Origin: Escherichia coli
Lineage (GTDB): Bacteria; Pseudomonadota; Gammaproteobacteria; Enterobacterales; Enterobacteriaceae
Reading direction: 5' to 3' (one strand)
Length of the DNA: 64,000 nt
Assembly (NCBI RefSeq): GCF_022846255.1
Contig: NZ_AP025682.1
Numbering within the stretch: position 1 is the first letter of the stretch; every line of letters starts with the position of its first letter. Made by a program: the position numbers and the translations under genes. Below, in pieces: positions 1,084 through 1,292 of the stretch. The notes beneath the pieces were generated by a model. The model was not told where the DNA came from. It searched no databases and saw only the letters and a list, made by a program, of their open reading frames with translations.

Positions 1084-1292
1084 TGCATCAGGCTGTGTTG
1101 TTATTGTCGGATGCGGCGTGAACGCCTTATCCAACCTACACAGCACTGAACTCGTAGGCCTGATAAGACGCGACAGCGTCGCATCAGGCAAGGCTGTTAT
1201 TGTCGGATGCGACGTGAACGCCTTATCCGACCTACACACAGCACTTAACTTGTAGGCCTGATAAGACGCGGCAGCGTCGCATCAGGCGCTGC
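1084..1292. repeat. REP/BIME cluster (four REP units; ~100-bp unit present twice in tandem)
   Basis: Repeated motifs gtcggatgcg.cgtgaacgccttatcc.acctaca and gtaggcctgataagacgcg.cagcgtcgcatcaggc, alternating orientation. Confidence 0.8.

Follow-up and report, generated by a model that had tools for sequence, protein, structure and literature searches.

A tandem REP array assigned to BIME-2 between pepA and holC of Escherichia coli

In the 64-kb stretch of Escherichia coli DNA that we analyzed (the window, in which positions are counted from the first letter), the 257-bp spacer between pepA and holC (1083-1339) consists nearly entirely of repeated sequence. An earlier note on this DNA had described the spacer as a tandem duplication of a BIME unit of ~100 bp, with a copy number that might differ between strains. 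We asked to which class of repeat the array belongs, how its units came to be present in more than one copy, and what they might do for the genes on either side. Our analysis indicates that the array is very probably a BIME-2 that is old in Escherichia, whose unit number drifts between one and four, and which lies in the 3' untranslated region of pepA.

Layout of the spacer and its repeats

The genes around the spacer were called from their open reading frames and from the RefSeq annotation of a stretch that is 100% identical. The 3' part of pepA (leucyl aminopeptidase), the 5' end of which is beyond the start of the window, occupies 39-1082 on the plus strand and ends with a TAA stop codon at 1080-1082. 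It is followed on the same strand by holC (DNA polymerase III chi; 1340-1783) and valS (1783-4638), and the stop of holC overlaps the start of valS at 1783. The repeat array (1085-1309) starts 3 nt past the pepA stop codon and continues to 30 nt before the ATG of holC, with both neighboring genes in the same orientation as the array. The sole unique DNA of the spacer is the non-repeat leader of holC, ATTTAAATCCACCACAAGAAGCCCCATAT (1310-1339, plus strand), which was common to the BIME alleles and to a BoxC allele described below, and was in part also found in Citrobacter. The only open reading frames that overlapped the array were read-throughs of the palindromes of 45 and 57 aa.

We mapped the REP units with a two-arm fuzzy consensus and with an nhmmer profile, which detected four units at E-values of ~1e-9 to 1e-10; the plus strand denotes the orientation 5'-GCCKGATGCG...CCTAC-3'. 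The REP core pattern had four matches in the window, against 0.10 expected from shuffled sequences, and two of the four were in the pepA-holC spacer. With a central gap of 7 nt the REP pattern gave no match, because the loops of the pepA-holC units are shorter, and the Z2 units were recovered when the gap was set to 4 nt. The fuzzy consensus and nhmmer placed the units in the order Y, Z2, Y, Z2, which agrees with the proposal of four REPs arranged as two pairs of ~100 bp. The Y (plus) and Z2 (minus) units alternate, with Y and Z2 set tail to tail over a linker of 14 or 16 nt and the pairs separated by a 12-nt head-to-head linker.

The array opens with the last 9 nt of a truncated Z2 unit (GCATCAGGC, 1085-1093), lined up in register with where the complete Z2 units end, followed by the first copy of the head-to-head linker (TGTGTTGTTATT, 1094-1105). 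The first Y unit (GTCGGATGCGGCGTGAACGCCTTATCCAACCTAC, 1106-1139, plus strand) is slightly degenerate and was identified by the fuzzy consensus and by nhmmer (E 1.2e-9). An S-type tail-to-tail linker (ACAGCACTGAACTC, 1140-1153) joins it to the first Z2 unit (1154-1189, minus strand), which reads GTAGGCCTGATAAGACGCGACAGCGTCGCATCAGGC on the plus strand and was recovered by the core pattern, the fuzzy consensus and nhmmer. The second copy of the head-to-head linker (AAGGCTGTTATT, 1190-1201) leads into the second Y unit (1202-1235, plus strand; fuzzy consensus, nhmmer E 1.3e-10), from which the second S-type tail-to-tail linker (ACACAGCACTTAACTT, 1236-1251) leads to the second Z2 unit (1252-1287, minus strand), found by the same three means as the first. 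The array closes at 1288-1309 with a degenerate head-to-head linker and the truncated 5' arm of a further unit (..ACCTGATGCG; CCTGATGCG). This tail is complementary to the head of the array (1085-1093), and the minimum-free-energy fold of the RNA pairs the two. The first 8 nt of the tail are also the head-to-head linker of the array in one of the alleles that we compared, L019.

Tandem Repeats Finder reported a repeat at 1085-1287 with a period of 98, 2.1 copies, 89% matches and a score of 325 (threshold 50), in support of a duplicated BIME unit of ~100 bp. A second row of the same output extended the array to 1309, so that overall it holds ~2.1-2.3 copies of a 96/98-bp unit. A repeat search of the spacer recovered the expected hairpin arms and two families of direct repeats, one of 74 nt (82%) and one of 58 nt (90%), at spacings of 98 and 96 nt. 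The two units differ by ~9 substitutions and a 2-nt indel (89% identity); substitutions between the copies had thus been recognized correctly, but the description of them as few was a slight understatement.

Variation among strains and predicted roles of the array

When the flanks in pepA and holC alone served as the query, 5,425 of 5,426 complete E. coli genomes gave a match, and from these we took 60 evenly spaced records in steps down the ranking. The suspicion that unit number differs between strains proved correct, since E. coli genomes with 0, 1, 2 and 3 units were found and these counts were confirmed by sequence in 13 alleles. Three units, in a spacer of 353-355 bp, were present in 27 of the 60 records and two units (257-260 bp) in 13. 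A single unit in a spacer of 159 bp, the K-12 type, occurred in five records, all of which had laboratory-strain names or sources. Another 14 records had a spacer of 132-133 bp without BIME, in which a BoxC element was in place. The last record gave a split match, since one of its REPs is interrupted by IS621, an element known to target such sequences. The strain is GPEC403-625 (NZ_CM142769.1, 1871-3503), in which this IS110-family element lies between GTAG and GCCTGATAAG, at the foot of the third Z2 unit, and splits a three-unit array.

In the BoxC allele, as seen in strain 165 (NZ_CP020509.1, 404-536), another sequence takes the place of the BIME, beginning at the base that follows the pepA stop and ending 30 nt short of holC. 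The filler is 104 bp long with terminal inverted repeats of 11 nt, and the reverse complement of its core, CCCTCTCCCTTAGGGAGAGGGTTAGGGTGAGGG, fits the type A motifs of BoxC/TMECO given in Table 1 of PMC4666352. It was found at full length in 1,401 of the 5,426 genomes (~26%), and its relatives are dispersed, with a median of three places per genome; a search of the 64-kb window returned no copy. The whole array has been swapped for a BoxC element in about one quarter of E. coli genomes. The length polymorphism of the spacer (132/133, 159, 257-260 and 353-355 bp) could be used as a simple typing marker. With an array found throughout the genus, gain and loss of units, replacement by BoxC and insertion of IS621, the locus also offers a well-sampled example of BIME-2 evolution.

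The spacer is predicted to be highly structured. Folded as RNA it reached -111 kcal/mol (z -7.1), and none of 200 shuffled sequences folded as well. As DNA, the Z2 hairpins had a folding energy of -12.9 kcal/mol with z-scores of -3.5 to -4.6, the lowest being that of the first Z2 unit (z -4.6), and the hairpin of the first Y unit was the weakest (-5.2 kcal/mol, z -1.25). Neither a sigma-70-like promoter nor an intrinsic terminator turned up in a crude consensus scan of 950-1450. The supplementary terminator table of a preprint gives 'yjgN:pepA:holC:valS' at the terminator after valS (bioRxiv 10.64898/2026.03.23.713779). With the meaning of this column taken at face value, and with no promoter or terminator found by our scan, the entry suggests that transcripts cross the spacer.

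In such a transcript of pepA, exonucleases moving 3'->5' would be halted at the hairpins, which would in this way stabilize the message from its 3' untranslated region and, as an attenuator does, partly stop read-through into holC-valS. On the DNA, the Y units would serve as a site of gyrase binding and cleavage that is independent of transcription. Judged from its family, the array would likely act as pepA stabilizer, read-through attenuator and gyrase site. The best-described relative, REP325, is a BIME-2 of 12 units that stabilizes the mRNA of yjdM, on its upstream side, and attenuates yjdN, on its downstream side, by ~8-10-fold, partly via Rho, although REP effects in general were context-dependent and highly variable (bioRxiv 10.64898/2026.03.23.713779). 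Gyrase cleavage sites were over-represented in a subset of BIME-2, mainly at y units and independently of transcription (PMC6379681). A literature search for papers joining pepA, holC and repetitive extragenic sequences returned none, nor any functional data specific to this locus; for the pepA/holC/valS operon it gave only an unrelated Shigella inversion table. About one quarter of the strains are without the BIME, which argues against an essential role.

A more far-reaching reading is that the number of units (0-4), or the presence of BoxC, sets the transcription that passes from pepA to holC-valS and is under selection. holC is preceded by only ~30 nt outside the repeats, and our scan of the spacer gave no promoter-like match; the number of units could therefore govern how much read-through from pepA arrives at holC and valS. 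The supplementary table places pepA:holC:valS in one unit, the attenuation by REP325 is a precedent for such an effect, and the alleles are common and stable within lineages. However, the variation is explained equally well as neutral, and the promoter scan on which the argument draws was a crude consensus search. On balance we consider selection on unit number improbable, though it fared better than the other alternatives discussed below. If it were true, individual lineages would tune a subunit of the replisome and a tRNA synthetase with coding and promoter sequence unchanged. Both holC and valS are essential in E. coli. The natural alleles described here are on hand for asking whether REP number tunes the expression of a downstream gene.

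We also considered that the array might itself encode a small RNA. Rfam reported a match to naRNA4 (RF02564) over the head-to-head pair of Z2, linker and Y (1157-1232, minus strand), with a score of 75.4 bits that is above the gathering threshold of 59.5 bits. A gene for a naRNA4-like nucleoid-associated sRNA would condense the chromosome together with HU, a protein that binds naRNA4 in vitro. Yet the naRNA4 model is merely a Y-linker-Z2 pair taken from REP325, and it matched two more BIME-2 pairs in the window, at 28250-28327 (minus strand, 82.4 bits; yjgA/mpl) and 34492-34570 (minus strand, 64.8 bits; ytfQ/ytfR). In the alignment at 1157-1232 the hairpins matched and the linker did not, and the opposite (plus) strand still scored 51.4 bits. 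The strand with the best score runs antisense to pepA-holC-valS, and our scan of 950-1450 found no promoter-like site. Moreover, the compaction of the nucleoid was not measurably affected by REP325 or naRNAs, and contacts between REPs that depend on HU were not seen (bioRxiv 10.64898/2026.03.23.713779). An sRNA gene at this position is therefore very unlikely. Since the other naRNA4 matches are Z2-linker-Y pairs of BIME-2, the Rfam family detects BIME-2 pairs generally, and from the sequence we read the match in the pepA-holC array as recognition of the repeat family and not of an sRNA gene.

The same Rfam search returned other RNA families in the window. The antisense RNA Ysr276 was matched inside pepA (129-323, minus strand, 175.8 bits) and the mgtA magnesium leader/riboswitch at 17959-18074 (minus strand, 125.8 bits). 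Matches to STnc450 (45116-45173, plus strand, 77.2 bits) and ES239 (48541-48663, minus strand, 157.4 bits) were also found.

Age of the array and origin of its units

The presence of two adjacent units, in register and 96/98 bp long, at a locus where unit number clearly varies within E. coli is what a recent tandem duplication confined to this strain, for example by replication slippage, would leave behind. The two units are, however, merely 89% identical, and strain A26 carries both of them in their diverged form (98-99% identical each), with the second unit of the window also 97% identical to the first unit of WP4. The allele of the window was found in ~320 genomes (at least 99% identity over 661 bp). 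Arrays at this locus were also seen in other Escherichia lineages, with three units in E. albertii, two in E. whittamii, one in Escherichia sp. MOD1-EC7003 and four in a record named 'E. coli SCPM-O-B-8794'. Since other strains share the diverged units and arrays occur genus-wide, the duplication is old and not specific to this strain, and we regard a recent origin as highly improbable.

Outside the genus, C. freundii had no unit at the locus; its 78-bp spacer has an inverted repeat that may, by eye, be a plain hairpin. We found no REP at the locus in Serratia, Rahnella, Ewingella, Brenneria, Morganella or Xenorhabdus. The occurrence of arrays across Escherichia lineages and of none in Citrobacter or these genera argues that the array is older than E. 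coli and that the BoxC allele is derived. As judged by these comparisons, the array is an old resident of the pepA-holC spacer in the genus Escherichia.

Several alleles contained hybrid units. The single unit of the K-12 type, taken from strain CJ236 with its spacer at ~4,484,281-4,484,439, has its 5' part from unit a of the three-unit allele and its 3' part from unit c; the first unit of IH5 is a joined to b, and the second unit of ST131 is b joined to c. Likewise, the unit of MOD1-EC7003 combines the 5' part of the first unit of the window with the 3' part of the second. These hybrids indicate that unit number shifts through in-register recombination, and the number would drift between one and four by such recombination, or by slippage, between units. 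Strand exchange mediated by TnpA(REP) would be an alternative route; E. coli has its RAYT gene in another part of the chromosome. In vitro, BIMEs of E. coli were cleaved, at CT sites in iREP or linker, and recombined by TnpA(REP) (PMC3333891). The hybrid units would be explained equally well by homologous recombination and by TnpA(REP), and their sequence does not separate the two.

The earlier note had named a likeness confined to the individual REP motifs as grounds for rejecting the duplication, but the likeness between the two units extends beyond them. The non-REP linkers are duplicated as well: the tail-to-tail linkers ACAGCACTGAACTC and ACACAGCACTTAACTT match at 12 of 14 positions and the head-to-head linkers TGTGTTGTTATT and AAGGCTGTTATT at 8 of 12, whereas the corresponding linkers at three other BIME-2 pairs in the window (ATTTGGCAACGGCT; ACTATGCTCAAAT; TTCAGCGCACAACC) are unrelated to them. 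This agrees with the published observation that BIME linkers vary between loci, whereas the tandem copies of any one locus show good conservation (PMC3333891). Because the linkers are duplicated and unlike those of other loci, the whole unit must have been duplicated, which runs counter to independent insertion of REPs. REPs are dispersed repeats with at least seven other sites in the window, but with linkers alike and with the entire 98-bp period aligned by Tandem Repeats Finder, it is scarcely credible that two REP pairs inserted independently next to each other and are alike in their REP motifs only.

Other REP sites in the window and relation to known repeats

The REP clusters that the earlier note had listed elsewhere in the window were all recovered by the fuzzy consensus and nhmmer within a few nt of where it had placed them, at 6631, 15022-15109, 24992-25075, 28229/28247-28330, 34489-34573, 44960-45050 and 50621/50657-50733. 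To describe their gene contexts we carried over the annotation of NZ_CP148334.1 by blastn alignment. Four of the eight sites, the pepA-holC array included in the total, are between convergent genes (yjgM/rraB, ridA/mgtA, yjgA/mpl and cpdB/ytfH), and the other four are between co-directional genes (pepA>holC, nrdD>nrdG, ytfQ>ytfR and msrA>paeA). The claim that such clusters are almost always between convergent or operon-terminal genes is thus right in part but overstates the pattern; pepA-holC itself is a co-directional pair. Two of the co-directional sites lie between nrdD and nrdG and between ytfQ and ytfR, both pairs known as operons. All eight sites are downstream of at least one gene, and none is between divergent genes.

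The window is not collinear with NZ_CP148334.1, from which it is separated by small indels and by a 1.4-kb IS4 insertion. The latter is an IS4-family element of 1,426 bp (36762-38187) between ppa and ytfP, with terminal inverted repeats, a transposase ORF of 448 aa (36828-38174, plus strand; NCBIfam IS4 family, 304 bits) and a 12-bp target duplication, CACCCGCAGGTG, at 36750-36761 and 38188-38199; it is missing from NZ_CP148334.1, otherwise the closest genome. The region at ~8327-9900 had many small indels relative to NZ_CP148334.1 and was locally far more divergent than the 98% average. The annotation of NZ_CP148334.1 gives the matching gene (8379-10014, minus strand) as a pseudogene that is frameshifted and has a stop codon within it.

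Between the convergent genes valS and yjgN (4639-4684), the K-12 counterpart holds the 18-nt REP341, according to the tables of the preprint (bioRxiv 10.64898/2026.03.23.713779). The tabulated sequence (AAAAAAGGCCGGAGCAUGCUCCGGCCUUCGUUUUCA) is a plain terminator hairpin and not a Y or Z unit, and our REP scans (fuzzy consensus, nhmmer) found no unit at 4639-4684 of the window. The order of numbering makes the entry that follows REP341 (valS/yjgN) the probable K-12 counterpart of the pepA-holC array.

BIME-2 elements are defined by y and z2 units with a short S linker in multiple tandem copies, the number of which per locus varies between strains (PMC3333891). The pepA-holC array has Y units of 34 nt each on the plus strand and Z2 units of 36 nt each on the minus strand, with the Z2 core GATGCGACGCTGNCGCGTCTTATC. 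We presume the 36-37-nt form to be z2 and the 29-nt form to be z1. Read in the 5'-GCCKGATGCG orientation, all four units end in CCTAC, and so have the GTAG/CTAC tetranucleotide at their foot. Their tail-to-tail linkers are 14 and 16 nt, as against the ~25-nt L-type linker of a BIME-1 at 15051-15075, and the array has no long linker of the IHF type. Its 2.1-2.3 copies are in tandem at 89% identity, and the number of units ranges from 0 to 3 in E. coli and from 1 to 4 in other Escherichia. The array is extragenic, flanked by the stop of pepA (1082) and the start of holC (1340). The identification of the spacer repeat as a BIME therefore stands and can be made more precise as BIME-2, with Y and Z2 units, a short S linker and tandem copies. 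The feature is real but ordinary, and variation of BIME-2 copy number between strains has already been published (PMC3333891). Its proper annotation is a BIME-2 (REP) array, neither an sRNA gene nor a novel repeat, and the finding is of little import beyond annotation.

Compared with known systems, the array is closest to the BIME-2 family (Gilson/Bachellier, via PMC3333891), with which it shares the alternation of y and z2, the short S linker, tandem copies, an extragenic site and a strain-variable number. We noted no essential difference from this family; the Y units are mildly degenerate here, with GTCGG in place of GCCGG and with CCAACC in the first Y unit, and both ends of the array carry truncated units. 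REPIN/RAYT systems, whose REP doublets are mobilized by REP-associated tyrosine transposases, likewise have an inverted REP pair as their repeating unit. REP325/naRNA4 (yjdM-yjdN, RF02564) has the same pair of Y and Z2 hairpins and is also located between co-directional genes, but it has 12 palindromic units against four in pepA-holC, and the linker sequences of the two are unrelated. The best naRNA4 match in pepA-holC is, in addition, antisense to the local genes. For REP325, a role as stabilizer and attenuator has been shown.

BIME-1 elements (RIP/RIB type), in which z1, a long L linker with an IHF site and y follow each other, belong to the same REP superfamily and are represented in the window by the example at 15022-15109 (ridA/mgtA). 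They are single-copy, with the shorter z1 unit (GCCTGATGCGCTACGCTTATCAGGCCTAC) and an L linker of ~25 nt, whereas the pepA-holC array has z2 units and linkers of 14-16 nt in tandem. A second BIME-1-type element was seen at 44960-45050, and both it and that at 15022-15109 consist of a Z1-type unit, a long linker and a Y unit. By eye, both long linkers contain an IHF-like motif, AAATTCAATA(A/T)ATTG, and that of the second element coincides with an 'ES036 sRNA' match reported by Rfam (44994-45036, 38.0 bits against 37.6). Finally, the BoxC/PIT/TMECO intrastrand-triplex repeat (PMC4666352) is, like the BIME-2 array, a small dispersed palindromic repeat and occupies the same spacer as an alternative allele, although the sequences of the two are unrelated.
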